A stretch of 64,000 nt of DNA from an uncultured Bacilli bacterium (lineage in GTDB: Bacteria > Bacillota_I > Bacilli_A > RF39 > UBA660), in the NCBI GenBank assembly GCA_910577505.1, contig CAJTLN010000002.1, forward strand, positions 114,740 to 178,739, in the 5' to 3' direction. Under the pieces are notes generated by a model. That model searched no databases. It had not been told where the DNA came from and saw nothing but the letters and a program-made list of their open reading frames with translations. Each line of letters opens with the position of its first letter. Within the stretch, counting starts at the first letter, position 1. Below are positions 44,974 to 63,582 of this stretch, one piece after another. Made by a program: the position numbers and the translations under genes.

Positions 44974-45012
44974 AAGTTTAGTAGAAAATAGTTAAAGAGT
45001 GGTGATGAAAGA

Positions 45013-46152
45013 ATGTTAAAAATTGGATTACAGATTGTATTTGAAATTTTATTAGCAATATTACTATTCTTTAACGTTTTTGTACTCAGAACTTTTAATT
45101 TAGTTTGGGTATTTATTGGATTATTAGGATTTTTAATTTTTTTATTATTTTTAATTAAGTATAAGAAACCTAGTAAACAAAGAAGTAAGACATTATATTA
45201 TATAGTAGTTGGTGGATGTTTAATTGTTCAAATATCTTTCTATATATGGGGATTATTTACAGGTTTTTCTACAAGTTATAATGTATTTTATAGAAATTAT
45301 TTATCAAAGATTCATATACTTGGTGTATTCTTTATTGTTTCTATAACTGAAATGATAAGATATCTTATTTTCTTAAATTATAATTATAATAAAAAAGATA
45401 AGAAAAAGTATATAGCAAGATTCATAATGATATTTAATTATGTTCTTATAGATTATATGTTGTTAGGAAAAAGTTGTAATTTTACAAGTAGATATGACTT
45501 AGTTAATACTTTATTGACTTTTGTTATTCCTTCAATTGCTAAAAACTTGTTTTTAGATTATACGAGTCAAAAATATGGTTATATAGTTAATTATTGGTAT
45601 CGATTAATAATGGATTTATACTTATATTTTATTCCTATAGAACCAAATGTAAATATATTTATAAAGACTGTAATATTATCAGTTTTACCATATTTTCTAT
45701 ATGTTATATTGGAAAATGTGTTTGGTAATAAAAAGAGAATAGCTCGTAAAGATAAAAAGAAAAACATAAGTGTTAATATTGTAACTTTAGTAATTCTTGC
45801 AGTATTGGTTTATTTAATATCGTGTCAATTTACTTATTCGATGATAGCTGTCGGAAGCGAATCAATGCAGGGGACTATTAATAAAGGTGATGCTGTAATA
45901 TATAAAGAATATAAGGGTGAAAAATTAAGTGATGGAGAAGTAATTGTATTTCGACAAAATAATAAATTAATAGTTCATCGTATATCTTCTGTATTTGAAT
46001 TAGATAATGGAGATCAAGCCTTTAATACAAAAGGTGATGCTAATGTTAGTGAAGATAATTGGATTGTAACTAAAGAAAATGTAGTTGGCGTTGTAAAATT
46101 AAGAGTTTTACTGATTGCATGGCCATCAGTATTATTAAATGAATGGTTGTAA
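45013..46152 (+). CDS. SipW-like (ER/archaeal Sec11-type) signal peptidase I with ~265-aa N-terminal polytopic membrane extension
   Basis: The C-terminal 110 aa carry, in order, the Sec11/SipW boxes: VGSESMQGT (SGSMEP), KGDAVIY (GD), LIVHRIS (HR, His-type catalytic dyad) and TKGDANVSEDN (GDNN). The N-terminal ~265 aa form 6-7 hydrophobic helices. Confidence 0.7.
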   Translation: MLKIGLQIVFEILLAILLFFNVFVLRTFNLVWVFIGLLGFLIFLLFLIKYKKPSKQRSKTLYYIVVGGCLIVQISFYIWGLFTGFSTSYNVFYRNYLSKIHILGVFFIVSITEMIRYLIFLNYNYNKKDKKKYIARFIMIFNYVLIDYMLLGKSCNFTSRYDLVNTLLTFVIPSIAKNLFLDYTSQKYGYIVNYWYRLIMDLYLYFIPIEPNVNIFIKTVILSVLPYFLYVILENVFGNKKRIARKDKKKNISVNIVTLVILAVLVYLISCQFTYSMIAVGSESMQGTINKGDAVIYKEYKGEKLSDGEVIVFRQNNKLIVHRISSVFELDNGDQAFNTKGDANVSEDNWIVTKENVVGVVKLRVLLIAWPSVLLNEWL

Positions 46153-46166
46153 GTGGAGTGATAAAA

Positions 46167-47492
46167 ATGAATGAAGAAAAAAATAATAGAAATAAGAAAG
46201 AGATTATTTTAGTAGCAGTTGGAGCAGTTGTAATTTTAATGCTTACAATGTTTTTATGTTACAAATCAATAAAAAGTAAAGAAGAGTATGTTATGCATTA
46301 TTCTGATAGTTCAGAACTAGATTATAACGTATATTTAAAAAAGAATGATTTTTATACTACTCCATATTTACCTAAAGATAGAGTATATATTTCAACATTA
46401 ATAGATTATATTGATGCGTCTTTCAATTATAATTTTGATGTGGTCGAAGATATTAATTTAGGATATAAATATTATATAAGTGCGAAAGTTGTTGTTGATA
46501 GTAGTTCTGGAAAAAGAATTTTTGAAAGTGAAGATATGCTTTTAGATAAGACAAGACTACAAAGAGTTAAAGATAAGAAATTCTCAATTAAAGAAAATGT
46601 AAAAATAGATTATAATAAATATAATCAATTAGCTAGTTCATTTATCAACAAATATGAACTTTCAGCTAAAGCCAATGTACTTGTAAGTATGTATGTTGAT
46701 GTAGCTGGTACTTATGAAAAATTTGAAAAGGAATTAAATGATTCAGCTGTAGTTAGTTTTGAGATTCCTTTGACTGCTAATACTACAGAATTAAAAATGA
46801 ATTATGATTTAAAAAATAATGTAAATGAAAAATTTGAATATGGTAAAACAAGGATTATTCATCCATTCTTATTTGCTTTATCTATATTAATAGCAATTAT
46901 AGATATTATATGGTTTATATATGAATTAGTTATATATGTTCAAAATAAAGATGTAAAAGTTAAATATAAAGAAAAATTAAAAAAGATATTTAGAGATTAT
47001 GGTCCTTATATTAGTAAGAAAGCAGCATCTACTAATACTAGAGATATTATGTATACTATGTCGTTAAGAATAGAAGTAGTTAATTCTTTTGATGATTTAA
47101 TTAATGTAAGAGATAGTATTGAAAAACCTATTTTGTTCTATGAAGCAATACCTGGAGAGCAGGCAATATTCTATATTATAGATACTAAAGTTTCTTATAT
47201 TTATATAATGAATGCAAGAGATTGTGGTAAGAAAAAAAATGAAGAAATTGAATATACTCAGGAAGAAGAAAAAGATATAGAATCTATTTCTAATATTGAA
47301 AATTTTGAACAAGAAGTTGAAGAGGTAGTAGAAAATGAAGAAACTACTGAAAAAATAAAAGAAGATATTAAAGAAGAAAAAAAAGAGGAATTATCTACTA
47401 TTGATCAAGAGGAAGTAATAGATAAAGATAAAGAAAAAAAGAAAAAGAAGAAAAAAAAGAGTACTAAAAAGAAAAAAGAAGTAGCTGAATAG
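46167..47492 (+). CDS. bitopic membrane protein with extracytoplasmic domain between two TM helices and K/E-rich cytoplasmic tail (possibly DUF5305-like SipW-locus partner)
   Basis: Overlaps the peptidase gene end (start inside its last codons, RBS agtggagtga). TM1 is IILVAVGAVVILMLTMFLC and TM2 is IIHPFLFALSILIAIIDIIWFIYELVIYV. Ends in EEKKEEL...KEKKKKKKKKSTKKKKE. Confidence 0.5.
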   Translation: MNEEKNNRNKKEIILVAVGAVVILMLTMFLCYKSIKSKEEYVMHYSDSSELDYNVYLKKNDFYTTPYLPKDRVYISTLIDYIDASFNYNFDVVEDINLGYKYYISAKVVVDSSSGKRIFESEDMLLDKTRLQRVKDKKFSIKENVKIDYNKYNQLASSFINKYELSAKANVLVSMYVDVAGTYEKFEKELNDSAVVSFEIPLTANTTELKMNYDLKNNVNEKFEYGKTRIIHPFLFALSILIAIIDIIWFIYELVIYVQNKDVKVKYKEKLKKIFRDYGPYISKKAASTNTRDIMYTMSLRIEVVNSFDDLINVRDSIEKPILFYEAIPGEQAIFYIIDTKVSYIYIMNARDCGKKKNEEIEYTQEEEKDIESISNIENFEQEVEEVVENEETTEKIKEDIKEEKKEELSTIDQEEVIDKDKEKKKKKKKKSTKKKKEVAE

Positions 47493-47519
47493 AACTAGAA
47501 AAACAAGGAGATATGCAGT

Positions 47520-50500
47520 ATGAAGAGAAAAAGTCGTATAAAGATAAATAAACTTAAGCTGGTTATGATAATCCTTGTTTTTTCTATGACTATTGGTTTT
47601 GCAGCTTTAAATACTGAATTAAATTTCTTTGGAGTAAGTACAATAGCTTTTGGTGAAAATGATTTTAGAGTTTATATTAGTAGAGCTTTTATAAATGATG
47701 TTGGTAAATCAAATGTTATAAACGAAAATAAAGATGCTTTTACTTTTACTTATTCTGATATTAATCGTAAGGATGCTGACTTAAAATATACAGTAAAAAA
47801 TACTTCAAATTCATATTATGCAGATGTTGAAGTAAGTTGTAAATCTCGTAAAAATGATGGAACTTCGTTTATTTATAATGAAGAAAATTATGAAAGTCAT
47901 AAGTTTCGTATTGAGCCAGGAAAGTCTTTAACTAAGGATATTAAGTTATTGCTTCCTAATACAAATTTAAATTTAATAAGTGAGAATTCTGATATTTTAT
48001 TGGTAGATCATATAAAAGGTATATCAAAAGGTAGTGATAGTAATATTAATTTTAATACATCAAATGGCACAGGTGTATATGAAAGTACAAGTACAAATTC
48101 TGGTAATAAGGTATATTATTATCGTGGAGCTACTGCTAATAATGATGTTATATTTGCAGATAAATGTTGGAAGATTTTAAGAACTTCTGAAAATGGTGGA
48201 ATAAAGTTAGTTTATAATGGTAATTCAATTGGTGGCACTTGTACGGAATTTTCTTCATCGTTAGGAATTTTATCTGATGAGGAAGTTATACAAATTGATA
48301 GTTCTCAGAATTTTAATAATAATGCATATGCAGGATATATGTATGGTGGTTTAAATTCGTCTGATTATTTGGGAACTCATAGTAATATAAATGATTCTTA
48401 TTTTAAACAAAAATTGGACGATTGGTATGAGAGATTTATTTTAAACACTGAATATGAAAAATATGTAATTGATGATTCTTTTTATAATGATAGAACTATA
48501 TTAAGAGATTATTCTAAAGTTACTAGTACTGATACTTTTGAAGGTTTAGGTTATGGTACTCATACTACTTTGTATGAAAGTGCTGGAAGATCTAGTTCAT
48601 TAGCAAAAACATTGTCACCTACTTATAAAGTTAATAATACAAATGATAGTTTTTCTGTTTCTAGTACTAATGGTAATGGTAAATTAAATTATCCTATAGG
48701 AATGTTGACAGCAGATGAATTAGTATATGCGGGAGTAACTAATGATGCTTCTAATAAGTCATGGTTAGAGGCATATAAAAGATTTATTTTAACAATTTCT
48801 CCTGTTGGATATTATAATAATTCAATGAATTTTAATGCATTAAGTGGTAGAGTTTTAAAGGCTTATCCTTCTGATTTTAAAGACGAAAGTGTTTATGTTT
48901 TACCAGTTTTAACTATAAGTTCAGATTTACATATTGTTAGTGGAGATGGAACGTCATCTAGTCCTTTTGTGTTATCTTCTGAAGATACATACGAGAATAG
49001 TTACACTTGTTCTCTTAATGTTAATAAAGTAGGTTATAGTGAAGATATAGAACCAAGAAATCCTTTACTTGATTTAGAGGTTGGGGAAGAGTATTGTTTT
49101 GATGAAGAATGTTTTTATACGATTAGCAATGACAATAAAGGAACTATAAAAATGATTGCTAAGTATAATTTATATGTTGGAAATAATTATGCTGATTATT
49201 CTAATTCTACAACTATTTCTAAAACAGATGCTTTATATGGAAAACAACATTATACAGCTGTAGGTACGCCAACATCAGGTGCGTATCCTCATATTGCAAC
49301 TGTTCCTTATAGTAAAAATACTACTGATAATACTTATGTTAATAGTGTTGTAAAAAATTATGTTGATGAATATGGGAAATATTTACAAGATCTTACAGGA
49401 ATTAATTTAAAGGCTGAACTTATTACTAGAGATGAATTAGTTGATTTGGGATGTGTTGTTATATCGAAGACAGACGGAAATTGTAATAATCCTAAGTTTG
49501 ATTGGGTAACTAGTACTACTTATTGGACTATGACTCCTGAGAATGGAACAGTTTATTTAGTTGGAAGTGATGGTTATTTTAAGGCTCCAACTACGCAATC
49601 GAACCTGGCAGCAAGTATGTTTAGAGGAGTACGACCTGTAATAACTATTTCTTTACCATCTAAGAATCCAGATGTAACTTTTGTTACAGGTAATGGTGAA
49701 ACACCTGGAGATGAATTATGTATAGGTAATGAATGTTTCTACGTTTTAAAATATGATGAGACTAATTATACTTTGTTTTCTAAATATAATTTATATGTTG
49801 GAAATAAATTTGATACCGGAAGTAGAACAACAATTAGTACGACTGATCCAAGTTATGGCAAGCAGAATTCTTTGGCTCTAGGAGATAAAGGATCACCAAT
49901 ATATGGAACGTTAAATTATGCAGATTCACTTAAAGCAATAAGTAATTATGTAGATTATTTGAATAATACGTATGGTTTGCACGCGACTGGAAGAGGCATT
50001 TCTCTTGAGGAATTGGAAAATCCAATTGGATGTCGAGATTTAACTGGTTCTGGTATTAATCATGGTTGTAGTAAAGAGAAAAATCCGCTTGTTAAATATG
50101 AATGGGTAACTAATACAACTTATTGGACAGGTGCTCTGAGTGGAGATAACGTTTATATAGTAGGAGGAGATGGCTTTTTTAAAGCTGTTGCTAAGACAAA
50201 TACGGATAATCGAGGAGCTCGACCTGTTATTATTGTTCCTGCATCTGAAATAAAAAGTCCTGATTATGTTGTAGATGATAAAAATAAATATCCAGAGTCT
50301 TGGAATGATAATGGTATCTTTTCTGAATATTACGACCAAGCATACGAAAAGTTAAAGACAATGACGACAGAAGAAAAGATTGGTCAGTTGTTGGTTGTTT
50401 CTTATTCTAATGGTAAGCCTAGTGATACTGAAAAAGCCATACAGAGTTACCATGTTGGAGGAGTTTTATTTTTTGCTGATGCTTTTGAAGACAAGAGTGA

Positions 50501-51413
50501 AGCGCAAGTTATATCTATGACATCTAATTTGCAGTCTAAATCTAAAATACCTTTAATGATGCAAGTTGATGAAGAAGGTGGAATTGTAACTCGAGTGGCT
50601 AGAAATACTAATTTAGTTAGTAATGAACTGCAAGCTTATCCAAATTTATTTAAAACATATACAAGAACAATTAGTGGAGTAACGTCTACATTTAATGGAT
50701 TTAAGTCTCCTAGTGATTTATATAATGATAGTGGTCATAATTTTGAACTAGTTAAGCAAGAGACTAAAGTTAAAAATTCAGTTTTAAGAAGACTTGGATT
50801 AAATATAAACCTTGCTCCAGTTTCTGATATAGCTGCTTCATCTTCTTATATTTATCCTAGAACTTTAGGAAAAGATGCATTCACAACTGGCGAATTTGTA
50901 AAGACAGTAGTAGAAACCAGCAAAAATAGTGGAGTTAGTCATTCATTAAAGCACTTTCCTGGTTATGGAAATAATTCAGATACTCATACTTCTTCATCAG
51001 TAGATGAAACTAGTTTGGAAGAATTAAAAAATAAGCACTTAGTACCATTTGTGTCTGGTATAAATGCTGGTGTTGAGTCTGTATTAATATCTCATAATAT
51101 TATTTCAGCTTTAGATAAAGATAATCCAGCTTCATTATCGTATGCAGTTCATTCGTTATTGTTTGATGATTTAGGTTTTACTGGTCTAGCAATAACAGAT
51201 GATTTATCTATGAATGCTAGTAGTGGTATTAGTAATACATATATAAAGGCATATACAGCTGGGAATCATATTTTGCTTACATCTGATAAATATGCTACTG
51301 CATATAGTGAAATATTAGAAGGTGTTCAATCTGGAAATATTTCTCTTTCGGATTTAAATCAAAGAGTTTTTAAAGTATTGGCTTGGAAATATTATGCAGG
51401 AATATTATCATAG
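47520..51413 (+). CDS. 1297-aa secreted multi-module protein: TasA-like signal/N-domain, repeated ~200-aa modules, C-terminal GH3 beta-N-acetylhexosaminidase (NagZ-like) domain
   Basis: RBS aaggagat. N-terminal MKRKSRIKINKLKLVMIILVFSMTIGFAALNTELNFFG resembles that of 44407. Two modules carry ECFY..., KYNLYVGN..., SYGKQ, W.T.TTYWT, G.DG(Y/F)FKA, (V/A)RPVI (approx. 49080-49670 and 49700-50250). The C-terminus (approx. 50330-51413) has KIGQLLVV, QVDEEGGIVTR, KHFPGYG and GFTGLAITDDLSM, which are GH3/NagZ motifs. Confidence 0.7.
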   Translation: MKRKSRIKINKLKLVMIILVFSMTIGFAALNTELNFFGVSTIAFGENDFRVYISRAFINDVGKSNVINENKDAFTFTYSDINRKDADLKYTVKNTSNSYYADVEVSCKSRKNDGTSFIYNEENYESHKFRIEPGKSLTKDIKLLLPNTNLNLISENSDILLVDHIKGISKGSDSNINFNTSNGTGVYESTSTNSGNKVYYYRGATANNDVIFADKCWKILRTSENGGIKLVYNGNSIGGTCTEFSSSLGILSDEEVIQIDSSQNFNNNAYAGYMYGGLNSSDYLGTHSNINDSYFKQKLDDWYERFILNTEYEKYVIDDSFYNDRTILRDYSKVTSTDTFEGLGYGTHTTLYESAGRSSSLAKTLSPTYKVNNTNDSFSVSSTNGNGKLNYPIGMLTADELVYAGVTNDASNKSWLEAYKRFILTISPVGYYNNSMNFNALSGRVLKAYPSDFKDESVYVLPVLTISSDLHIVSGDGTSSSPFVLSSEDTYENSYTCSLNVNKVGYSEDIEPRNPLLDLEVGEEYCFDEECFYTISNDNKGTIKMIAKYNLYVGNNYADYSNSTTISKTDALYGKQHYTAVGTPTSGAYPHIATVPYSKNTTDNTYVNSVVKNYVDEYGKYLQDLTGINLKAELITRDELVDLGCVVISKTDGNCNNPKFDWVTSTTYWTMTPENGTVYLVGSDGYFKAPTTQSNLAASMFRGVRPVITISLPSKNPDVTFVTGNGETPGDELCIGNECFYVLKYDETNYTLFSKYNLYVGNKFDTGSRTTISTTDPSYGKQNSLALGDKGSPIYGTLNYADSLKAISNYVDYLNNTYGLHATGRGISLEELENPIGCRDLTGSGINHGCSKEKNPLVKYEWVTNTTYWTGALSGDNVYIVGGDGFFKAVAKTNTDNRGARPVIIVPASEIKSPDYVVDDKNKYPESWNDNGIFSEYYDQAYEKLKTMTTEEKIGQLLVVSYSNGKPSDTEKAIQSYHVGGVLFFADAFEDKSEAQVISMTSNLQSKSKIPLMMQVDEEGGIVTRVARNTNLVSNELQAYPNLFKTYTRTISGVTSTFNGFKSPSDLYNDSGHNFELVKQETKVKNSVLRRLGLNINLAPVSDIAASSSYIYPRTLGKDAFTTGEFVKTVVETSKNSGVSHSLKHFPGYGNNSDTHTSSSVDETSLEELKNKHLVPFVSGINAGVESVLISHNIISALDKDNPASLSYAVHSLLFDDLGFTGLAITDDLSMNASSGISNTYIKAYTAGNHILLTSDKYATAYSEILEGVQSGNISLSDLNQRVFKVLAWKYYAGILS

Positions 51414-51427
51414 ATAATTAAATTAAT

Positions 51428-51467
51428 CTCAGTAAATGAAAATACTGAGATTTTTTATTAATGTTAT
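51428..51467 (+). terminator. rho-independent terminator
   Basis: atctcagta-aatgaaaa-tactgagat hairpin followed by T6. Confidence 0.65.
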
Positions 51468-51538
51468 AAATAGAGAAAAATTTTACTAAATATGGGAAAA
51501 ATGATATTATAAGGCCGTTATTTTGGGGGGATTCTAAT

Positions 51539-52009
51539 ATGCAAAATATAATATTGTTGATAAAGTATCCGTTTATAACAATTGCAGGTATAGTAGTGTT
51601 TATAGGAGCAATAATAAATGGAACAATAGATATAAATATTTCTTGTAATAAGTTTGATGTTGGATTATCTAATGTTAAAATAGATGGTGAAGCTAAAAAC
51701 GTGTCTATTAATAAACGTAATATTAATTTTGTAACAGGAGATTTAAAAAATGTTGGAGATGTATCTATTTTAGAATATGATTTAACTAATAAGAGCAAAT
51801 TATATAATGCTAATATTTCAATGAAATGCTATAAAGAAGGAAATAAAAGTGATTATTTTAGTGTTGAAGATATAACTCCTCAAATTCTTAAAGCTGGTGA
51901 AACTAAAAAAGGTTATATAAAAGTGAGTCTTTTAAAGGAATCATTAACAGATAGTAATGAAAATTTTTATTGTACAATGGATGTTAAAGCAGAGAAAAAT
52001 AATAAGTAA
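51539..52009 (+). CDS. small TasA-like paralog (N-terminal hydrophobic segment + beta-rich domain)
   Basis: RBS ggggggat. MQNIILLIKYPFITIAGIVVFIGAIINGT, then FVTGDLKNVGDVSILEYDLTNKSKLYNANISMKCYKEG, which is homologous to the FVTPEFNTVGETATVTYYVENVG...ITCKA block of 44407. Confidence 0.5.
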   Translation: MQNIILLIKYPFITIAGIVVFIGAIINGTIDINISCNKFDVGLSNVKIDGEAKNVSINKRNINFVTGDLKNVGDVSILEYDLTNKSKLYNANISMKCYKEGNKSDYFSVEDITPQILKAGETKKGYIKVSLLKESLTDSNENFYCTMDVKAEKNNK

Positions 52010-52053: not shown

Positions 52054-52081
52054 TTAGCAGTTGACCATTGACATCTGCTAA
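52054..52081. promoter_or_regulatory. CIRCE-like operator 1 (imperfect, 10-nt spacer), overlapping the hrcA promoter
   Basis: TTAGCAGTT-gaccattgac-ATCTGCTAA compared with consensus TTAGCACTC-N9-GAGTGCTAA. The 7-bp arms TTAGCAG/CTGCTAA are perfect inverted repeats. Confidence 0.5.
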
Positions 52082-52096
52082 TAAAATGTTTATAAT
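52068..52096 (+). promoter_or_regulatory. consensus sigma-A promoter for the hrcA-grpE-dnaK operon (TTGACA-17-TATAAT)
   Basis: ttgaca at 52068-73 and tataat at 52091-96 with 17-nt spacing. Embedded between/within the two CIRCE elements. Confidence 0.65.
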
Positions 52097-52100
52097 TAAT

Positions 52101-52127
52101 TTGGCACTTAAGAAAGAATAGTGCTAA
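52101..52127. promoter_or_regulatory. CIRCE operator 2 (HrcA binding site)
   Basis: TTGGCACTT-aagaaagaa-TAGTGCTAA is a 9-N9-9 inverted repeat that matches the CIRCE consensus at 15 of 18 arm positions. Located just downstream of the -10. Confidence 0.8.
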
Positions 52128-52141
52128 TGGTGGTGACTTTT

Positions 52142-53140
52142 ATGGATGAAAGACAAAAAGAACTACTTAAAGAAATAGTAGAGTCTTATATTAAAAGTGT
52201 TAAACCTGTTGGTAGCCAAGCATTGTGTAAGAAGTTTAAATTATCTTCTGCAACAATTAGAAATGAAATGGCTACTTTAGAAAAATTGGGATATATTGAA
52301 AAAAATCATGTATCTAGTGGTAGAGTTCCTAGTGAACGAGGATACAAATATTATGTAGAACATTTAATGCAACCTAAAGAATTAAATGGAGAAGAAATGT
52401 TAAAGCTACAAACGATATGTCATAATCAACAGTTACAGGTAAGTGACGCAATTGCAAAATGTATGGAAATTATTGCTGATATAACTAATTATACTAGTGT
52501 TGTATTGGGCAAAAATTCAAATGATAATAATTTGCAACAAGTTAATATGATTCCACTTGATAATAATCAAGTAATTGCTCTGGTTTGTACTAACAAAGGT
52601 ATTGTAGAAAATAAAAAGTTTAGGATACCAGAAAATATATTTATGGAAGAACTAGTTAAGACTTGTGAAATCATTAATAAGATGTTAGTTGGAACGCCAA
52701 TTGATGAAGTAAGTCAAAGATTAGAATATGATATTAAGCCTATTATAAGTAAAACTATTAATCAATATGAAAAAGTTTATGAAATATTCTATGATGCATT
52801 TAATGATTTTACCAAAAATAGTGCCAATGTATATTTTAGTGGTAAGACTAATATTTTAAAACAACCTGAATATGATAATATTGAAGAAATTAAAAGGATT
52901 GTTAATAAATTCGAAGACGAATCTTTGGTTAGAAAAATCGAATGTAAGAGTGAAGGAATTAATGTTTATATTGGAGAAGAGTCAGAATTTGATCCAAATG
53001 TCACAATAATTAAAAGTAAGTATAACATTAATGGAGAGGAAGGCACTATTGCTATAGTTGGTCCTAAAAGGATGGAATATGATAAAGTAATAGGATTACT
53101 TGAATACATTAATGAAGAATTTAAAAGTAAAGATGAATAA
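52142..53140 (+). CDS. hrcA: heat-inducible transcription repressor HrcA
   Basis: MDERQKELLKEIVESYIKSVKPVGSQAL.KK...SSATIRNEMATLEKLGYIEK.HVSSGRVPS is collinear with B. subtilis HrcA. ATG 52142 preferred over the tracked upstream GTG. Confidence 0.88.
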   Translation: MDERQKELLKEIVESYIKSVKPVGSQALCKKFKLSSATIRNEMATLEKLGYIEKNHVSSGRVPSERGYKYYVEHLMQPKELNGEEMLKLQTICHNQQLQVSDAIAKCMEIIADITNYTSVVLGKNSNDNNLQQVNMIPLDNNQVIALVCTNKGIVENKKFRIPENIFMEELVKTCEIINKMLVGTPIDEVSQRLEYDIKPIISKTINQYEKVYEIFYDAFNDFTKNSANVYFSGKTNILKQPEYDNIEEIKRIVNKFEDESLVRKIECKSEGINVYIGEESEFDPNVTIIKSKYNINGEEGTIAIVGPKRMEYDKVIGLLEYINEEFKSKDE

Positions 53141-53199
53141 TTTATGTGAGTAATTTTGGACTTACTATAAATTTTACTTGTAGAAGAGGAGACTAAAAA

Positions 53200-53823
53200 A
53201 TGGAAGAAAATAAAAATACTCCAGTTCAAGAAGAAACAAAAGTAGTAGAGGAAGTAGAAAAAGCTGTGAAAGAGGAAGTAGCAGAAGAAACAAATAATAC
53301 TACTGAAGTTAGTAATGAAGAAACTCCTAAGAAAGAAGAAAAGAAAAGCTTTTTTAAGAAAAAAGACGATACAGAATTAAAGAAACTTAAAGAAGAAAAT
53401 GAGATATTAAAAGATAAATTCTTAAGAGTTAATGCTGAAATGCAAAATATGAGAAGAAGAATGGAAGAAGAAAAATCTAATCTTCTTAAATATGAAGGGG
53501 AAGAATTGATTAAAAGATTACTTCCAATCGTAGATAATTTTGAAAGAGCTATAGGAATGGATGATACTAATTTAGAAGATGAAGTAAGTAAGTTCTTAAG
53601 TGGATTTAAAATGATCTATGGAAATTTAAATAGTACATTACAAGGATATGAAATTATTGCAATGGACTCATTAAATAAGCCTTTTGATCCTAATACTATG
53701 GAAGCGGTTTTAGCTGAACCAGTTGAAGGAATGGAACCTAATATTGTAGTAGATGTTTTACAAAAAGGTTATACTTATAAAGGTAAAGTTATTAGACATG
53801 CTATGGTAAAGGTTAGCAAATAA
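53200..53823 (+). CDS. grpE: nucleotide exchange factor GrpE
   Basis: RBS agaggag. Acidic N-terminal region, coiled-coil LRVNAEMQNMRRR and C-terminal beta domain (LLPIVDNFERA). Confidence 0.9.
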   Translation: MEENKNTPVQEETKVVEEVEKAVKEEVAEETNNTTEVSNEETPKKEEKKSFFKKKDDTELKKLKEENEILKDKFLRVNAEMQNMRRRMEEEKSNLLKYEGEELIKRLLPIVDNFERAIGMDDTNLEDEVSKFLSGFKMIYGNLNSTLQGYEIIAMDSLNKPFDPNTMEAVLAEPVEGMEPNIVVDVLQKGYTYKGKVIRHAMVKVSK

Positions 53824-53886
53824 TAACAAAATAAACATAAATTTAATTATACAAATTATACAAAAATATAGAAAAGAGAGATAATT

Positions 53887-55713
53887 ATGGGAAAAATTAT
53901 TGGTATAGATTTAGGTACAACAAACTCATGTGTTGCAGTACTTGAAGGTGGAGAACCACACGTTATAACTAATCCAGAAGGAAATAGAACAACTCCTTCA
54001 GTAGTTGCTTTTAAAGGTGATGAAGAATTAGTTGGTGAAACTGCTAAAAGACAAGCCGTTACAAATGTAGATAATACAATTGCTTCAATTAAAAGAAAAA
54101 TAGGTACTAAAGAAAAAGTTAGTGCTAATGGTAAGAAATATACTCCAGAAGAAATAAGTGCAAAGATTTTAATGAAATTAAAGAGCGATGCAGAAGCTTA
54201 TTTAGGAGAAAAAGTTACAGAAGCAGTTATTACTGTTCCTGCATACTTTAATGACGCTCAAAGACAAGCTACTAAGAACGCTGGTAAGATTGCTGGTTTA
54301 GATGTTAAACGTATTATTAATGAACCAACAGCCGCAGCTTTAGCTTATGGTATTGATAAACAAGAAAATGCTCATACAGTATTAGTTTATGACTTAGGTG
54401 GAGGAACATTCGATGTTTCAATTCTAGACTTAGGTGATGGTGTATTTGAAGTTAAATCAACATCAGGAAATAATAAACTTGGTGGAGATGATTTTGACCA
54501 AAGAATTATGGATTATTTAGTAGCAGAATTTAAGAAAGAAAATGGTGTTGATTTATCAAATGATAAAATGGCAATGCAACGTATTAAGGATGCTGCTGAA
54601 AAAGCTAAAAAAGATTTATCTGGTATGACTTCAACACAAATTAATATTCCATTTATTACTCAAAATGAAAATGGACCATTACATTTAGATGTAACATTAT
54701 CAAGAGCTAAATTTGAAGAAATCAATATGGATTTATTTGAAAGTACTTTAGATCCAGTTAGAAAAGCACTTAAAGATGCTAAGTTAACTGCTAAAGATAT
54801 TGATAAGGTATTATTAGTTGGTGGATCAACTCGTATTCCATATATTCAAGATTTAGTTAAGAAAGAATTAGGACAAGATCCTAGTAAAGGAGTTAACCCT
54901 GATGAATGTGTTGCAATTGGTGCATCTATTCAAGGTGGTGTTTTAACTGGTGAAGTTAATGACTTAATCTTATTAGATGTAACTCCATTATCACTTGGTA
55001 TTGAAACTTTAGGAAATGTTATGACAGTATTAATTCCTAGAAATACAACAATACCAGCAAGTAAGAGTCAAGTATTTAGTACTGCTGCAGATAATCAACC
55101 TGCTGTAGATATTCATATCTTACAAGGTGAAAGACCAATGGTACAAGATAATAAGACTCTAGGAAGATTCCAATTAGGAAATATTCCTCCAGCACCTAGA
55201 GGAGTTCCACAAATCGAAGTTAAATTTGATATTGATGCTAATGGTATCGTTAATGTATCTGCTAAAGATTTAGGAACTGGTAAAGAACAAAGTATTACAA
55301 TTACTTCAAATACTAACTTAACTGATGAAGAAATTGATAAGATGATGAAAGAAGCAGAAGCTAATAAAGAACAGGACGAAAAACGTAAAGAAGAAGCAGA
55401 AGTAAGAAATGAAGCTGATTCATTAATCTTCCAAACTGAAAAGGCAATTAAAGATTTAGGAGATAAAGTTGATTCTGCAGATAAAGAAAAAGCTGAAGAT
55501 AAAATGAAAGAATTAAAAGATGCTTTAGCTGGTGATGATTTAGATGCTATAAAAAAAGCAAAAGATGAATTACAAGAATCTGCTATGGCATTAGCTACAA
55601 AAGTTTATGAAGAAGCTGCAAAAGCAAATCAAGCTAATGCTGGCGAAGCTACTGAATCATCTGATGATGATAAACATGATAATGTACAAGAAGCTAGTTA
55701 CGAAGAAAAATAA
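53887..55713 (+). CDS. dnaK: molecular chaperone DnaK (Hsp70)
   Basis: [18 protein letters not shown]...[10 protein letters not shown]...[11 protein letters not shown]... is unmistakable Hsp70. Confidence 0.97.
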
Positions 55714-55776
55714 TTAAAATTAAGGTAAAAAGTTCTAGGTGACTAGAACTTTTAGCCGATATATGGAGGAAAACTT

Positions 55777-57582
55777 ATGCAAAAATATAATAGTAGAGAT
55801 GAAGTACCTGAAGAATTTAAATGGGATTTAACTCCATTCTTTAAAAATAATGACGAATTTGAAGATAGTTATAAAAAGACAAAAGAATTAGCTTTAGAAT
55901 TAAAAGATTATGTTGGGTGTACTAAAGATGCTAATAGATTGTATGAATTCTTAAAAAAGCAAATAGAGTGCATTGCTTTATGGGAAGATTTATATGTTTA
56001 TGCATATTTGATTAATGATCAAGAGCTTGGAATTTCAGAAAGTATGGAAAGAAAAAACAGATCAGAACAGTTAAATACTATTTTAACTACAAATACTAGT
56101 TTTTTTGCTCCAGAGTTATTAAGATTATCAAAAGAAGAATATGATGCATTGTTTAAAAATAATTCTAAATTAGAAGAATTTAGAGCAGATTTGGATAGTA
56201 CTTATAGAGAAAAAGAACATGTTTTATCGGAGAATGAAGAAGTTATTGTAAGTCAATTAACTGATGCAATGAATCATTTTGACGATATGTCTTCGGCTTT
56301 ATTAAATAAAGAACATGATTATGGAAAAATAAAATTAGAAGATGGTAGTGTTTCTACTATTGCTCCAAATAATTTTCGTTCTTTGATGCGTAATAAAGAT
56401 GAAAATATACGTAAGAGAGTTTATAACCTATTTAATAAAAAGTTAATGCAATATGCAGATAGTAATGCAATGTATTTAAATAGTTATGTTTCTATGAATG
56501 ATACAATTGCTAAAATTCGTCATTATAAAGATTCTTGGAATAGTAAATTATTTGGTTTAAATTTAAGTGATAAAGTATTTAAAACATTAGTTAAAGTTAC
56601 TGAGGATGGATATGATACTTTACATAGATATTATGAATTAAAAAAGCATGCTTTAGGATTAGATACAATGCATAGATATGATTTGTATTTAGAAATGGCT
56701 AAGTCTGAAAAAGAATATAGTATACCTGAAGCACAAAAGTTAATACGTGAAGCATTAAGACCATTAGGGGAAAAATATTTAGAAAAGTATGATAAAGTTA
56801 TTAAAAATCGTTATATTGATTATTGCCAATATAAAGGGAAATGTAGCGGTGGATACTCATTTTCTACAGTGTTACAAGATTCTAGAATACTAATGAGTTA
56901 TAATTATACTTTGGATTCTGTTTCAACAATAGCACATGAAGCAGGTCATAATATTCATCATCAATTCGTAGGGGAAAATAATCCTTATCAATATCGTTTC
57001 CCATCTTCAATTGTTGCAGAAGTTGCTTCTTTAACAAATGAATGTTTACTTTCTAATTACTTAGCTGAGCATGGCGAAACAAAAGAAGAAAAATTAGCGG
57101 GTCTTGCCAACATTATGGGAGTTATTACAAGCAATTTATTTGATGCGGTAAGAGAAGGTAAACTTGAACAAGAAATGTATCAAGAAGTACATAAAGGCGG
57201 AATGATTACTAAAGAATTCTTAAATAAAAAAGCTAAGTCTTCTTTAAAAAAATATTATGGTCCAGTTGTAAAAATGGATAAATATGCTGCTAATACATGG
57301 ATAACTAGAAGTCATTATTATATGCATTTTTATCTATATAGTTATTCAATTTGCATAAGTGTTGCTTCAAATGTAGCATCTAAAATTCTTGTAGGAGATA
57401 AAAAGATGCTTGATAGTTATATGAAATTTTTATGTGCAGGATCTGATAAATGGCCTAATGAAGCATTTGCGATTTTAGGAATAGATTTAGAGGATAGTTC
57501 TGTATATGAAAATGCTATAAAGTATTTTGATTCATTAATTGATAAATATTATGAAATACTTAATGAAGATGAGGTGAAATAA
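55777..57582 (+). CDS. pepF: oligoendopeptidase F (peptidase M3B)
   Basis: About 600 aa with HEAGH zinc motif (...[13 protein letters not shown]...) and PepF-like overall layout. Inserted between dnaK and dnaJ. Confidence 0.75.
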
Positions 57583-58709
57583 TGGCTAGTAGTAGAAATT
57601 ATTATGATGTTTTAGGTGTTTCTAAGACGGCTACAGATGCAGAAATTAAAAGTGCATTTAGAAAATTAGCTAAACAATATCATCCAGATATTAATAAAGA
57701 GCCTGGAGCTGAGGAAAAGTTTAAAGAGATTGGTGAAGCTTACGCAGTATTAAGTGATTCTGAAAAACGTAAACAATATGATCAATTTGGGCATGAAGCA
57801 TTCACACAAGGAGCTGCACAAGGTGGATTTGGTGGAGGATTCGGAGGATTTTCTGCCGATGATATTGATTTATCTAGTATCTTCGATGATTTATTTGGTG
57901 GTGGAATGTTTGGAGGAGGATCTCGTAGAGGACAAAATAGAAATCGTCCTACGAAGGGAAGAGATTCTTTAGTAAATGTAACACTAACTTTCGAAGAAGC
58001 TGTATTTGGTTGCAAAAAAACTATTAATATAGATTTAGATTCAGAATGTGAGTCTTGTGATGGAAAAGGTGGAAGTGGCGAAGAAACATGTTCTACTTGT
58101 GGTGGTAGAGGAAGAGTTATCACACAACAAAGAACGATGTTTGGAGTTTTCCAATCTGAAACAACTTGCCCTGATTGTAATGGGAAAGGTAAGTCATATA
58201 AAAATGTATGTAAAAAATGTAATGGTAGTGGACATGTAGTAAAAAATAAAGAAATAGAAATTACTGTTCCAGAAGGTGTTGATACAGGACATCAACTGCG
58301 TATTACAGGTAAAGGTGCTGCGGGATATAATGGTGGCCCTAATGGTGATATTTATATTGAATTTAAAGTAAAAGATCATCCGTTATTTGAAAGAAAAGAA
58401 AATGATATTTATGTAGATGTACCACTTACAATTACAGAAGCGGTTTTAGGTTGTAAAAAAGAAATACCAACATTATCTGGAAGTGTAGTATTAACAATTG
58501 ATGCAGGAAGTCAACCTGGAGATCAATTACGACTTAGGGGTAAAGGAGTTAAAGATCCTGTTCGAAATAAAAAAGGCGATATGTATGTTGTTTTAGATGT
58601 AGTTATTCCAGATAAATTAGATAGAAAACAAAAAGAGTTATTTAAAGAGTTAGATAAAACAGACTTAGAAACAGGTAATAGTTTTAAAAACTTTAAAAAA
58701 TATCTATAA
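57582..58709 (+). CDS. dnaJ: molecular chaperone DnaJ
   Basis: J-domain YYDVLGV...HPD (HPD motif), a G/F-rich region, and four CxxCxGxG zinc-finger repeats. Confidence 0.95.
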
Positions 58710-58731
58710 GAGCTTTATAAAGCTCTTTTTC
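58709..58731 (+). terminator. rho-independent terminator after dnaJ
   Basis: agagcttta-taaagctct hairpin followed by T5. Confidence 0.65.
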
Positions 58732-58781: not shown

Positions 58782-60068
58782 GTGGCTAAATTTTGGAATA
58801 TGGACAATAAATACTCAATAATTATTGTATCTATGGTTGGTGTTTTTGTTATATTAGTTATATTAGCTGTAATATTTAGTAACGTGAAATTTGAGGCGAA
58901 AACTGAAGGAACTGTTGCAAAAATAATTAATGATGGAGATTTAACGATAAATTATGTCGATGGAGATATGATAGATTTTAATGATTCTAAAGAACATTCT
59001 TATGGTGTTACTATAACAAATACATCTGATGCCAAATTATACTATTCTATTTATTTTAGCTCTGCTAATGTAGATGCGAATGTAAGAATAAATGATTATG
59101 AAGGTAAAACAGTTAATGAATTAAGTGAAGATATAACTAAAAATAAGTTGATTAATCTTTATAGTATAGAAAGTGGAGAAACATTAAGATATACAATAGT
59201 TATAAAGAGTAAAAGTAAGTTTAAAGGTAATTTAAACGTTGTTAATGAGTCTTTAACAACGGATACTTTTTCTGATTTAATATTATTAAATAACAATATC
59301 TCAGTACCTAAAACTAGAGTAGGTGAAGAAATTGCTACAAAGAATGAGGGATTAATTACGACAATTGATAATAGAGGAACTTCTTATTATTTTAGGGGAG
59401 CAGTATTAAATAACTATGTAAAATTAGGAAATATCTTATTTAGAGTTGTTAGAATTAATGGTGATAGTACTGTAAGATTAGTTTTAGATAATGCGTTAGA
59501 AACTCAATTGGCGTATAATACAAACTCATTAGCTCAAGATCAAGAGCCTTCGTCACTAGCTTTACTTTCTGGGGCATCTATATTAACTTCATTAAATACA
59601 TGGATGGAAGAGAATTTAGCTGATTATTTATCATATTTAACAGTTGGGGATTATTGTACTGATACTAATTTTAATAATAATATAAATGGAATTAACTATT
59701 CTTCTGCATACAATAGAAATATTGTTGATAAAGAACCAGACTTATTTTGTACTGGAGAGGTATATACTGGTAAAGTTGGATTATTGAGTGCTGATGAAGT
59801 AGTATTTGCGGGAGCATCTACTAATATACCTAATAGTAGTTATTATTTGTATAATAAAGATATTCAAGGGAACTATGTAACAAATAGTAGTTATTCTGTT
59901 AATTCTGCTAATAATGTAGCAATGATAAATGTAATGTCAAATGGAGCTTTTGGAGATGGTATTCTAATAAATAATATTTCTTATGTAAGACCTGTTATAA
60001 ATGTTAGTATAAGTGCTAAAGTTAAAGGGTCAGGTACATTAAAAGATCCATATATTATTGTTTCTTAA
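58782..60068 (+). CDS. secreted/anchored paralog of the N-terminal region of the 1297-aa protein (TasA-like N-domain + YY(F/Y)RGA...RLV and LLSADEVV(F/Y)AG blocks)
   Basis: N-terminal hydrophobic segment IIIVSMVGVFVILVILAVIF. SYGVTITNTSDAKLYYSIYF aligns with YTVKNTSNSYYADVEVSCKS. GTSYYFRGAVLNNYVKLGNILFRVVRINGDSTVRLV aligns with GNKVYYYRGATANNDVIFADKCWKILRTSENGGIKLV. VGLLSADEVVFAG aligns with IGMLTADELVYAG. Start is GTG 58782 or ATG 58797. Confidence 0.55.
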   Translation: MAKFWNMDNKYSIIIVSMVGVFVILVILAVIFSNVKFEAKTEGTVAKIINDGDLTINYVDGDMIDFNDSKEHSYGVTITNTSDAKLYYSIYFSSANVDANVRINDYEGKTVNELSEDITKNKLINLYSIESGETLRYTIVIKSKSKFKGNLNVVNESLTTDTFSDLILLNNNISVPKTRVGEEIATKNEGLITTIDNRGTSYYFRGAVLNNYVKLGNILFRVVRINGDSTVRLVLDNALETQLAYNTNSLAQDQEPSSLALLSGASILTSLNTWMEENLADYLSYLTVGDYCTDTNFNNNINGINYSSAYNRNIVDKEPDLFCTGEVYTGKVGLLSADEVVFAGASTNIPNSSYYLYNKDIQGNYVTNSSYSVNSANNVAMINVMSNGAFGDGILINNISYVRPVINVSISAKVKGSGTLKDPYIIVS

Positions 60069-60151
60069 TGTAAAAAAATATAAATTATTTTATTTCATTA
60101 TTTATAAATGAAAAAAATGGTGTTATACTCAAATGGTAGGGAGATGTAATT

Positions 60152-60820
60152 ATGAATTATTTACTAAATATTCTTGATGCAATATCAGAATCTAGTACTT
60201 TTTTCTTAGTATTAATTATTTTATTAATTATAGTTTCTCTATCTATGCTTTATTTACTTTATGTACAAAAAAAAGAAATATCTGAAAAAAATATTGAAAG
60301 TCAGATGACTAATCAAAGACAGATAATTGAGCAGGTTGAGGAGATTAATGCTACTCCAAATGAAGTAGTACAAGAAAATAATGAATTACAATCTGGTTTA
60401 TCGACTGAAAATTCAACTGTTCAAACATCTGAATTGGTTGAGATTACGGATGATGAAATTCCAAAAGAATTAGAATATACTCAAGCTTTATGGGAGAATG
60501 ATAGTTTTGATTTAAAGAGTGTTACTCAAGAATTAGAAGCATTACCAAGAGAGAAAACAATTCAACTTACTCCTTATGAGGCTGAACAAGAAGAAAAAGC
60601 AATAATAAGTTATGATGAACTAATAGGTCAGACTGATAGAATTGATATTAATTATAATAAATCAAAAAAAATTGAAAATGATGTTTATGTAAAACAAAGT
60701 GATTTGAATAAGAGTAATCAGTTTGAAGATAAAAGGGTTAATAAAGTTGATGTTACGACTTATGAGCATGAAGAGGCCTTTTTAGAAGCCTTGAAGCAAT
60801 TACAAAAAATATTAAATTAG
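60152..60820 (+). CDS. hypothetical N-terminally anchored protein
   Basis: RBS gggaga. TM helix FFLVLIILLIIVSLSMLYLLYV, then a Q/E-rich soluble region. Confidence 0.45.
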   Translation: MNYLLNILDAISESSTFFLVLIILLIIVSLSMLYLLYVQKKEISEKNIESQMTNQRQIIEQVEEINATPNEVVQENNELQSGLSTENSTVQTSELVEITDDEIPKELEYTQALWENDSFDLKSVTQELEALPREKTIQLTPYEAEQEEKAIISYDELIGQTDRIDINYNKSKKIENDVYVKQSDLNKSNQFEDKRVNKVDVTTYEHEEAFLEALKQLQKILN

Positions 60821-60839
60821 GACTCTTAGGAGTCTTTTT
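60820..60839 (+). terminator. rho-independent terminator (short stem)
   Basis: gactc-ttag-gagtc hairpin followed by T5. Confidence 0.45.
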
Positions 60840-60857
60840 GTGTAGGGAGAGTATGTT

Positions 60858-62135
60858 ATGGTAAAAAATAAAGAAAAAAAAGAATATATTTTAGAATATG
60901 ATATGATTTTTGCTAATGTCTTATCTTTTCTTTTATTGATTATAGCTATAGGAATTACTGGTGTAATAATTGTTTTATTTAAGCTACCTAATAATTTTAG
61001 TATTTATTTAGAGGATAATAATTTAAGTTTTTATTTTGGTATATTTTTTATTATAATGATTTTTTGGATGGTTTTACATGAAATAATACACGGGATTGCT
61101 TATCAAGTTATGGGAGCTAAAAACGAAAATATTGTTTTTGGAGCAGCAATTGAAAAAGGGGTTTTTTATTGTAAATGTAAGGAATATATTGATAAGAAGT
61201 GTATTATGGTTTCGCTTATTTCGCCTTTTATTTTAATAGGAGTTGTTACTTATATAATTGGTTTTATAATAAAGTCTCCTTTACTTATCATTTTATCTAT
61301 TATAAATATTTCTGGAGCTTCTGGGGATTTAATGATGTTTAGTTTCTTTTTAAAACAAGATAATGATGTTGAATTTAAAGAGTTAGGTTTTTCTTCCCCT
61401 TTTGTTCTAAGAACTAGTAAGAATTTGAATGAAAAAAAATATTTAGGTATTAAATCGATTAAAGAAGTAAAAGATGAATCAGAAACAAAAGAGGGACCAG
61501 AAAAGAAAATACATATTAGTAAAGCTTCATGGATTTTTATAATAGTTATGCTAATTTTATTAATATTATTGTTTGTTTTACAAACAATAAATAATAATAT
61601 AGACAAAAGTGAATTAAATGAAAATTATGGTGTAGTAGAAGAGGAAAGCGAAGTTACTGATGCATTAGAAAAATATGATGGTGAAAAGATAGAATGGAAT
61701 GTTGTTAACGATTCAAAGGTTAAAGAAATACCAGGTGTTATTTTTAGAAGACTTGATGGAAATATTGTAGCAGATGACGGGATGTCTGAAAAAAATGTTT
61801 TTACTAATTTTTATTCATTAAAAAATGTATTTTTATATGATCTTACAAATGATAATGTACCTGAAATAATAGCATCATTTGACTGCTGTTATGGCGTTTC
61901 TATTGGAGTCATAGAAATTTATGATTGGGTTAGTAATATTACTTATATTTTTACTGAAGAAAATTATCATAAATATTATTTGTATTCAAAAAACAATAAA
62001 GTTTATTTATTAGATTGGGATTTTGATAACCAATATTATGCTTTTCGTGGAAGTTTGAAGTTAGAAGAAGAATTTATGGATGATGATAATTCTAATTATA
62101 GAAAACTTACAATAAAGCAGGAGGAAGAACTATAA
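60858..62135 (+). CDS. membrane-embedded HExxH zincin-like protein (DUF3267-like putative metalloprotease) with C-terminal extracytoplasmic domain
   Basis: RBS gggaga. LHEIIHGIAYQVMGA lies at a TM helix boundary. About 5 TM helices, and the C-terminal ~190 aa are soluble. Confidence 0.45.
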   Translation: MVKNKEKKEYILEYDMIFANVLSFLLLIIAIGITGVIIVLFKLPNNFSIYLEDNNLSFYFGIFFIIMIFWMVLHEIIHGIAYQVMGAKNENIVFGAAIEKGVFYCKCKEYIDKKCIMVSLISPFILIGVVTYIIGFIIKSPLLIILSIINISGASGDLMMFSFFLKQDNDVEFKELGFSSPFVLRTSKNLNEKKYLGIKSIKEVKDESETKEGPEKKIHISKASWIFIIVMLILLILLFVLQTINNNIDKSELNENYGVVEEESEVTDALEKYDGEKIEWNVVNDSKVKEIPGVIFRRLDGNIVADDGMSEKNVFTNFYSLKNVFLYDLTNDNVPEIIASFDCCYGVSIGVIEIYDWVSNITYIFTEENYHKYYLYSKNNKVYLLDWDFDNQYYAFRGSLKLEEEFMDDDNSNYRKLTIKQEEEL

Positions 62136-62307
62136 AAAAGTAAATTACATCTGTTATATAAAAGTGAACTTATTGCATATATAAAAGTTGTGATTTAGAA
62201 AAGATGAGCCCAATTGATAATAAAAGGTATAAAATTTATGTTATAAAAGATAATTTAGGAAATTATCTTTTTTTGTGCTATAATTTTGTTTGAATTAGGT
62301 GATGTAT

Positions 62308-63582
62308 ATGAAGTTTAATATATTAACATTTGGATGTAAGGTTAATTCTTATGAATCTGAATATATGAAGGAACAACTAATTAATCATGGATATATTTAT
62401 GAAGATGATTATAAGTCAAGTGATATAGTTATAGTTAATACTTGCAGTGTTACTAATACTGCAGATAATAAATGTAAAAAGATGATTAGAAATGTTAGGA
62501 GAGATAATAATGATGCTCTTTTAATGGTTTGTGGTTGTACAGCAGAGAATCATCGTGATGAACTTAATGATTTAGATATAGATATATTAATTGGTAATAA
62601 GGAAAAATCTAAGGTTATAGAATTAATTGAAGATCATCAAACTAGTCATGAAAAATATATTAAATTTTATAATGATAGAAGATTACCTTTTGAAGATATG
62701 AAAGTTAATGAGTTTAATGATAAAACGAGAGCTTATGTTAAGATTCAAGATGGATGTAATAATTATTGTGCCTATTGTATTATTCCTTATGTAAGAGGAA
62801 GTATTAGAAGCAAGGGATTTTTAGAAGCTGTTTCAGAAATTAAAGAATTAGTATATAAGGGACATAAAGAAATAGTTTTTACAGGTATTAACACTGGTGC
62901 TTATGGAAAAGAAACTGGTAAATATGATTTAACTGATTTAATTAGAGAAATCTCTAAGATTGACGGACTAGAAAGAATAAGAGTATCTAGTATAGAAATT
63001 ACAGAAATAAATGATAAGTTTATTCTAGAAATGAAAAATAATAAGAAGTTATGTGGACATTTGCATGTTTCTTTGCAATCTGGTAGTGAGAGAATCTTAA
63101 ATATTATGAATAGAAAATATACTAAACAAGAATATTTAGATAAAATAAATAAGTTAAGAGAAGCAAGACCTGATATTAATTTAACTACTGATGTTATTGT
63201 TGGTTTTCCAACTGAGACTGAAGAAGAGTTCTTAGAATGTATAGATTATTGTAAGTTAGTAGGTTTTAGTAAAATACATGTTTTTCCTTATTCGAAGAGA
63301 GAGGGAACTAAAGCTGCAGAAATGGATGGACATTTACCAAATAATATTAAGAAAGATAGGGCAAGAAGGTTAATTCTAATAGATAATGATTTACAGCTTA
63401 AGTATAATCAAAAGTTTATTGGTAAGATGGTTAATGTTTTAGTAGAAGAAATAATAGATGGAAAATCTATTGGTCATACAGAGAATTTCTTGAAAGTTAT
63501 AATTGATAAAGAATTGGATACTAATAGATGTTATGATGTAGTTATTAAAGAAGCTTATATTGATTATGTTAAAGGAGAATAA
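62308..63582 (+). CDS. mtaB: MiaB-like tRNA methylthiotransferase (MtaB/YqeV family; radical SAM)
   Basis: MTTase N-domain with Cys (FGCKVNSYES...NTCSVT), radical SAM IQDGCNNYCAYCIIP, and a C-terminal TRAM-like segment. Confidence 0.8.
   Translation: MKFNILTFGCKVNSYESEYMKEQLINHGYIYEDDYKSSDIVIVNTCSVTNTADNKCKKMIRNVRRDNNDALLMVCGCTAENHRDELNDLDIDILIGNKEKSKVIELIEDHQTSHEKYIKFYNDRRLPFEDMKVNEFNDKTRAYVKIQDGCNNYCAYCIIPYVRGSIRSKGFLEAVSEIKELVYKGHKEIVFTGINTGAYGKETGKYDLTDLIREISKIDGLERIRVSSIEITEINDKFILEMKNNKKLCGHLHVSLQSGSERILNIMNRKYTKQEYLDKINKLREARPDINLTTDVIVGFPTETEEEFLECIDYCKLVGFSKIHVFPYSKREGTKAAEMDGHLPNNIKKDRARRLILIDNDLQLKYNQKFIGKMVNVLVEEIIDGKSIGHTENFLKVIIDKELDTNRCYDVVIKEAYIDYVKGE

Follow-up and report, generated by a model that had tools for sequence, protein, structure and literature searches.

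The closest described systems to the protein analysed here are proteins that carry a DUF6273 domain. DUF6273 has a C-type-lectin fold and serves as a ligand-binding module of phage receptor-binding proteins (PMC10743442). In the immunoglobulin A (IgA) peptidase of Thomasclavelia ramosa (IgAse/ThomasA), the N-terminal domain is annotated as DUF6273 (PMC12402451) and is an enlarged domain of the C-type-lectin-like kind (CTLD), which is dispensable for catalysis and has neither the canonical long-loop site for Ca2+ and carbohydrate nor the conserved disulfides (PMC12237041). In this work, we consider p428, a protein of 428 residues encoded in a stretch of 64,000 nucleotides (the window) from an uncultured Bacilli bacterium of the RF39 lineage (contig CAJTLN010000002.1, positions 114,740 to 178,739), and describe it as a membrane-anchored protein with a DUF6273-type domain that is predicted to adopt the C-type-lectin fold. 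An earlier note, made from the letters of the window, had regarded the p428 gene as a satellite of a locus that encodes a much larger protein of 1297 residues (p1297).

Architecture and fold of p428

The gene and the parts of its product are as follows; coordinates here and below are positions in the window.

58782..60068, + strand, p428, 428 residues, GTG start (open reading frame, ORF)
58806..58880, + strand, p428 residues 9-33, long hydrophobic helix (AlphaFold2 (AF2) model and sequence)
58917..59246, + strand, p428 residues 46-155, generic beta-sandwich (stalk) domain (AF2 model)
59259..60065, + strand, p428 residues 160-428, enlarged DUF6273-like domain of C-type-lectin fold

The AF2 model, calculated with a multiple sequence alignment of 18 orthologs (predicted local distance difference test, pLDDT, 84; predicted template modelling score, pTM, 0.70), consists of the helix at residues 9-33, the beta-sandwich at 46-155, a short helix, and an alpha/beta domain at about 180-428. 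The hydrophobic run of the first helix, read from the sequence, is about 20 residues long and has no AXA-like site; the helix is probably an uncleaved signal anchor. The orthologs are full-length proteins of about 400-435 residues with the same architecture and without Pfam matches, and the 18 aligned here have a mean column identity of 63%.

The C-terminal domain is marked by the motifs YYFRG..NNYV, RVVRINGDSTVRLV, W274, C292/C323, GLLSADEVVFAG, RPVINV, and GSGT..PY. C292 and C323 are invariant among the 18 orthologs. Across the wider family, G206, N211, W274, E339, G344, and G418 (p428 numbering) are invariant, and Y202, R205, C323, and P404 are nearly so; no catalytic signature is evident among the conserved positions of the domain.

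The predicted domain has a C-type-lectin-like fold that resembles those of DUF6273 domains. When the model was compared with viral models using Foldseek, four phage proteins named "DUF6273 domain-containing" were among the best matches (target TM-score at most 0.62), and a comparison with the PDB matched only the generic N-terminal beta-sandwich. The DUF6273 profile (PF19789; gathering score, 23.5 bits) was matched weakly by 5 of 23 diverse family members, one of them at 25.6 bits, which is above the gathering score; one family member aligns to profile positions 5-170, beginning at about residue 75 of the domain. In addition, two database homologs of p428 carry a precomputed PF19789 match.

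The family is large: 5109 representatives (50% clustering) contain a p428-type domain at E<=1e-3, and 3072 do so at E<=1e-10. A cluster look-up for names returned no annotation, and a Pfam annotation is missing from almost all of the family members listed. The domain is typical of secreted and surface proteins, namely the N-terminal domain of the IgA peptidase, giant multi-repeat proteins, and phage DUF6273 proteins, which bears out the surface-protein character that the earlier note had ascribed to the family. Among the giant proteins, P0128 (4905 residues) and P0129 (3528 residues) contain up to 11 tandem p428-type domains of about 260-270 residues each, the 11 copies being in the 4905-residue protein.

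The IgA peptidase offers the closest comparison. Its residues 31-321 (PDB 9qa6) form, like the p428 domain, an enlarged C-type-lectin-like core of about twice the canonical CTLD; it also comes from a member of the gut Bacilli, and its N-terminal domain is extracellular and non-catalytic. However, the IgAse domain forms one chain with an M64 metallopeptidase, and that protein is anchored by sortase at the C-terminus, whereas p428 has no peptidase domain and is built on an N-terminal transmembrane (TM) helix anchor and a beta-sandwich spacer. The two proteins have no detectable match at the sequence level. The structural zinc ligands of the IgAse domain are D78, H90, and C126. Neither Peptidase_M64 (igalysin) nor any other peptidase was found in p428 with Pfam and NCBIfam, and the protein contains no HExxH, the first part of the M64 motif HExxHxxxGxxD.

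The second comparison is with the Pfam family DUF6273, which includes phage receptor-binding proteins ("tentaclins") diversified by diversity-generating retroelements (DGRs). The family shares with p428 the motifs LL(S/T)xDE...AG and (V/I)RP(V/A). In contrast to the DUF6273 profile, which has 172 positions, p428 has an extra N-terminal beta-meander of about 75 residues (YYFRG...WRIVRINGDG..RLI) ahead of the part that aligns to the profile, and unlike the DGR-diversified proteins it is conserved in sequence rather than hypervariable and has no DGR nearby.

Three other identities were considered for p428 and rejected. It has neither the class III signal of a pilin nor the metal-binding motif of a peptidase, and the conservation of its sequence and the lack of a nearby retroelement speak against a DGR target.

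Relation to p1297 and conservation of the gene order

The window has a GC content of about 26% and a strongly positive GC skew, and its exact and close matches are metagenome-assembled genomes of uncultured gut Bacilli, some of which are named Candidatus Coprovivens. The surrounding features are listed below.

44407, + strand, p188, protein of 188 residues (ORF list)
45013-46152, + strand, polytopic membrane region joined to a SipW/archaeal-type signal peptidase I (TIGR02228)
46143, + strand, p449, protein of 449 residues (ORF list)
47520, + strand, p1297, protein of 1297 residues with a GH3 domain at its end (ORF list, Pfam)
47982..48980, + strand, copy of the p428-type domain in p1297 (residues ~155-487), different subfamily (independent profile, BLASTP)
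51539, + strand, p156, protein of 156 residues (ORF list)
52121-58709, + strand, hrcA, grpE, dnaK, pepF-type M3 peptidase, dnaJ (ORFs, hidden Markov model (HMM) scans)
58708..58727, + strand, terminator-like hairpin with T-run directly 3' of dnaJ (consensus scan)
60152..60820, + strand, p222, single-pass membrane protein of 222 residues (ORF, orthologs)
60819..60836, + strand, terminator-like hairpin with T-run in the interval between p222 and the DUF3267 gene (consensus scan)
60858..62135, + strand, DUF3267 putative membrane zincin, 425 residues (PF11667, 2.3e-18)
62299..63582, + strand, mtaB, tRNA methylthiotransferase, downstream synteny anchor (TIGR01579, 2e-134)

The three ORFs at 58782-60068, 60152-60820, and 60858-62135, as well as the HEIIH motif in the last of them, lie where the earlier note had placed them.

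The paralogy that the note saw between p428 and the first ~480 residues of p1297 is real for the C-terminal domain, which accounts for about 265 residues. BLASTP finds two collinear high-scoring segment pairs (E=2e-4 and 3e-4), in which p428 residues 202-268 correspond to p1297 residues 199-257, and p428 residues 332-428 to p1297 residues 393-487. The E-values remain well below 0.01, the limit that the note had set for significance after low-complexity filtering, when SEG is switched on (4e-4 and 5e-4). Moreover, a profile of the domain that was made from 21 further members of the family, excluding both window proteins, detects p428 at about 160-428 (6e-72) and p1297 at about 155-487 (1.1e-39), and finds no further match among the 165 ORFs of the window. 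The note was also right that neither the GH3 domain nor the extra repeat modules occur in p428 (Pfam).

The same cannot be said of the N-terminal block, for which a shared TITNTS/TVKNTS motif had been proposed. Residues 1-160 of p428 and of p1297 are compared at E=0.5 (BLASTP, SEG); p428 residues 1-160 give no BLASTP match with p188, and with p156 an E-value of 0.018-0.039, which we count as not significant. A comparison of the p428 N-domain with the other N-regions by hhalign gave a probability of about 1%, and iterated local jackhmmer searches left it unconnected to the group of p188, p1297, and p156. The N-regions of these three proteins are mutually linked, weakly but consistently (5.6e-4, 0.005, and 8.7e-4). 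The supposed set of four paralogous N-domains is thus reduced to three, and p428 appears, on these comparisons, to be a distant paralog of p1297 that shares one domain only.

The two copies in the window are also far apart within the family. When 174 domain instances were ranked relative to p428, the p1297 copy came last (174/174); relative to p1297, p428 ranked 168/174. They are old, divergent subfamily members, and therefore there has been no recent local expansion of the kind that the earlier note suggested. Local duplication of a p428-type gene does happen elsewhere in the lineage: a second such gene adjoins the first or lies a few kb away in some relatives (L071, 3995-5479 and 5639-6871; L076; L082, 16837-17607).

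A one-genome-per-species collection contains 557 stretches that encode p428 relatives. For the analysis of gene order, we fetched 82 related loci (L001-L082; at most ~21 kb per genome) and compared their ORFs with the proteins of the window. Most of the 82 loci keep the order hrcA-grpE-dnaK-pepF-dnaJ-p428-p222-(DUF3267)-mtaB, even at a p428 identity as low as 31%, at which dnaK is about 80% identical; this retention also speaks against a recent expansion. The p428 gene thus appears to be a core gene of ancient divergence and vertical inheritance in a wide lineage of low-GC, uncultured Bacilli of the gut (Candidatus Coprovivens and its relatives).

The variable part of the region is the other locus. 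The island p188-SipW-like-p449-p1297-p156 is missing from the slot between VanY and hrcA in L001, L003, L004, L007, L012, L017, and L019, where VanY is directly followed by hrcA, and it is partly present in L005 and L008. Judged by this distribution, 44407-52009 behaves as an accessory island. The label "satellite" is therefore reversed: since the p428 slot is conserved while the large locus is missing in several relatives, it is p428 that represents the core gene.

The island looks like a SipW-type peptidase with its cognate substrates. The SipW/archaeal-type signal peptidase I domain (TIGR02228, 2e-21) occupies residues 248-363 and is fused to an N-terminal polytopic membrane region of about 240 residues. 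As in SipW/TasA-type secretion pairs, the peptidase adjoins proteins with similar N-terminal regions (p188, p1297, and p156); no SipW-cognate signal model of NCBIfam was matched. Unlike the partners in such pairs, p428 lies 13 kb off, has an N-domain that is unlinked by sequence to those of p188, p1297, and p156, and persists in genomes without that island in this region. The SipW-type peptidase (45013) is the sole clearly dedicated processing enzyme nearby, and it belongs to the other locus.

Downstream genes and transcription units

The earlier note described p222 as an anchored Q/E-rich protein. Its sequence comprises one TM helix, an acidic linker that is variable and of low complexity, and a C-terminal part of about 100 residues that is conserved. 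The conserved part contains the motifs DL.S.T.ELE, YE.EQEEKAIISYDEL, and Y.HEEAFL.ALK.L...LN, with invariant E143, Q146, E147, A150-Y154 (AIISY), E156, L157, E207, E208, L211, and L214. There are at least 2167 homologs, all of about 170-230 residues, none of which is named or has a Pfam match. Neither Pfam nor NCBIfam yielded a family above noise for p222, p428, or the p428 orthologs. Most of the AF2 model of p222 is disordered (pLDDT 59), and the conserved motifs form short helices. An ortholog of p222 lies directly 3' of p428 in 71 of the 82 loci.

The hairpin at 58708-58727 is, as read from the sequence, the end of the hrcA-grpE-dnaK-pepF-dnaJ unit. A hairpin with a T-run also follows dnaJ in most related loci in which dnaJ and p428 are adjacent, and since this signal is found both in the window and in most relatives, p428 probably starts its own transcription unit. 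A promoter scan returned 89 promoter-like sites against 83 expected by chance in such AT-rich DNA, and no p428 promoter is claimed. The interval between p428 and p222 contains a terminator-like hairpin in about half of the loci. In the loci without DUF3267 (L022-L082), p222 ends 7-26 nucleotides before mtaB with no hairpin; because of this short, hairpin-free gap, co-transcription of p222 with mtaB is suggested.

The 425-residue protein belongs to DUF3267, as the earlier note had surmised: PF11667 matches residues 67-168 at 66.9 bits (E=2.3e-18; cutoff, 27.1 bits), and the HEIIH motif (61077-61091) is located at the end of a TM helix. These are features of the Pfam family; unlike it, the window copy has at 61530-62135 (residues ~225-425) an additional TM helix and a C-terminal extension of about 180 residues without a Pfam match. 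Most DUF3267 relatives are about 240 residues long and lack both; the copy in L008 (~460 residues) has them.

The note went on to propose dedicated processing enzymes for p428, and the idea draws on the position of this HExxH membrane protein two genes 3' of p428 on the same strand and on the SipW-type peptidase of the other locus. However, the only clade in which DUF3267 fills the slot from p222 to mtaB is the closest one (L001-L021), and there it is found in L001-L006, L008-L010, and L012-L021. Within the fetched flanks, L007 and L011 of this clade and all of L022-L082 lack it in this slot, while p428 and p222 are present there, so that the two do not consistently co-occur at the locus. Furthermore, a terminator-like hairpin (60819-60836) separates p222 from the zincin gene in the window; L008 has a similar one and L017 a weaker one, and in most other DUF3267-containing loci there is none. 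With the patchy slot and this hairpin, the proposal is unsupported for p428, and the DUF3267 gene would instead be a later, clade-restricted insertion between p222 and mtaB rather than a dedicated maturation enzyme.

Several further observations concern the dnaK operon itself. In nearly all related loci, as in the window (55777-57582), dnaK and dnaJ flank a gene for a pepF-type M3 oligoendopeptidase. The identity of the protein in this slot to the window copy is bimodal across L001-L082 (62-89% vs 27-36%), which suggests that two M3 subfamilies share one operon slot across different genomes. Upstream, a sigma-70-like promoter with a perfect TTGACA-17-TATAAT (52068-52096) precedes an inverted repeat (52101-52127) that resembles the controlling inverted repeat of chaperone expression (CIRCE), with 3 mismatches to the consensus. 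The repeat overlaps the GTG at 52121, where hrcA as listed begins. Translation probably starts seven codons downstream of this GTG, at an ATG, because gene callers report 332 residues.

Probable role of p428

We consider it fairly probable that p428 is a vertically inherited core gene encoding an anchored lectin-fold surface binder, a distant paralog of p1297 that acts independently of the zincin. In this reading, the N-terminal TM anchor and the beta-sandwich stalk would present the DUF6273-type domain outside the cell, where it would bind a ligand, which may come either from the host or the diet (a glycan or a protein) or from the envelope of the cell itself (a polymer). The gene would be constitutive, and its fixed position between the dnaK operon and mtaB would be due to vertical inheritance. 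The extracellular location and the binding role are suggested by analogy with the secreted IgA peptidase, the giant repeat proteins, and the phage receptor-binding proteins.

A number of points weigh against this reading. First, p428 and 17 orthologs give no match to PF19789 at E<=1, so that p428 is not a member of the Pfam family, and PDB sequence searches with two profiles (A1 and A2) gave no meaningful match even at E<=10. Because of the latter result, the link to the IgA peptidase is structural only, and the DUF6273 assignment, which comes from the predicted structure and weak transitive matches, is itself transitive and holds at the superfamily level. Second, the charges flanking the TM helices of p428 and p222 are ambiguous as to membrane orientation. 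Third, DUF3267 may sit elsewhere in genomes that lack it here, given that at most ~21 kb per genome was covered. Finally, the strict adjacency of p428 and p222 over large distances could mean a functional link.

This last point leads to the alternative that p428 works together with p222 as a two-protein membrane module, in which p428 would be the extracellular binder or sensor and p222 a bitopic partner that docks another factor via its three helical motifs; the pair would then be kept by joint work, for example in envelope organisation or signalling, beyond mere inherited gene order. It is favoured by the adjacency, which is seen in 71 of 82 loci and spans the full range of divergence, as well as by the invariant motifs of p222 (E143, Q146, E147, AIISY, E207, and E208) and the fact that both proteins are lineage-restricted, membrane-anchored, and unannotated. 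On the other hand, a hairpin separates the two genes in about half of the loci, the short distance from p222 to mtaB suggests co-transcription with mtaB and not with p428, and the p222 model is disordered. Note that dnaJ and mtaB are ancestral neighbours in Bacillota, as in the B. subtilis dnaK operon, where prmA and rsmE fill the interval between them, and that genes lodged in this interval would tend to stay syntenic in any case. We regard a module of this kind as possible but rather unlikely.

A bolder version, which we hold with considerable doubt, is that p428 and p222 constitute a lineage-defining module of the envelope in an order-level clade of uncultured gut Bacilli with reduced genomes. 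Here, p428 would be a stand-alone anchored form of the tip domain of the T. ramosa IgA peptidase that binds a glycan or an immunoglobulin of the host mucosa or organises the surface, and p222 would relay or scaffold via its three invariant helical motifs. If true, this would provide a first functional handle on the N-terminal domain of gut IgA peptidases, and also on these uncultured commensals and the biology of their surface.

It seems quite improbable that the C-terminal domain of p428 is catalytic, that is, an enzyme with a lectin/formylglycine-generating enzyme (FGE)-like fold acting on envelope or host substrates. The C-type-lectin/FGE-like superfamily does include enzymes, E339 is invariant and C323 nearly invariant in the family, and in the p1297 paralog a GH3 glycosidase is joined to the domain. 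However, no enzyme family was matched in Pfam, NCBIfam, or the PDB sequences, the closest solved relative, the IgAse N-terminal domain, is dispensable for catalysis (PMC12237041), and up to 11 tandem copies in one protein are typical of binding modules rather than enzymes.

Least probable of all is the model of the earlier note, in which p428 arose by recent duplication from the N-terminal part of p1297, and the DUF3267 zincin, with other local enzymes, is dedicated to the maturation of this expanding family: the shared domain and the nearby peptidases speak for it, but the mutual near-last ranks, the synteny down to 31% identity, the variability of 44407-52009 instead of p428, the absence of DUF3267 from many slots, the intervening hairpin, and the non-significant similarity of the N-domains all speak against it.

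Although no new mechanism is demonstrated, the analysis bears on how such regions should be read. Protease-substrate pairs should not be read from adjacency alone, as the DUF3267 gene illustrates. The evolutionary reading of the region is reversed, the small gene being ancient and syntenic and the large multi-domain locus an accessory island. In addition, a mostly unannotated family of more than 5000 representatives (50% clustering), most of which have no Pfam match, gains a predicted DUF6273/C-type-lectin fold, and this assignment aids the annotation of uncultured gut Bacilli genomes.

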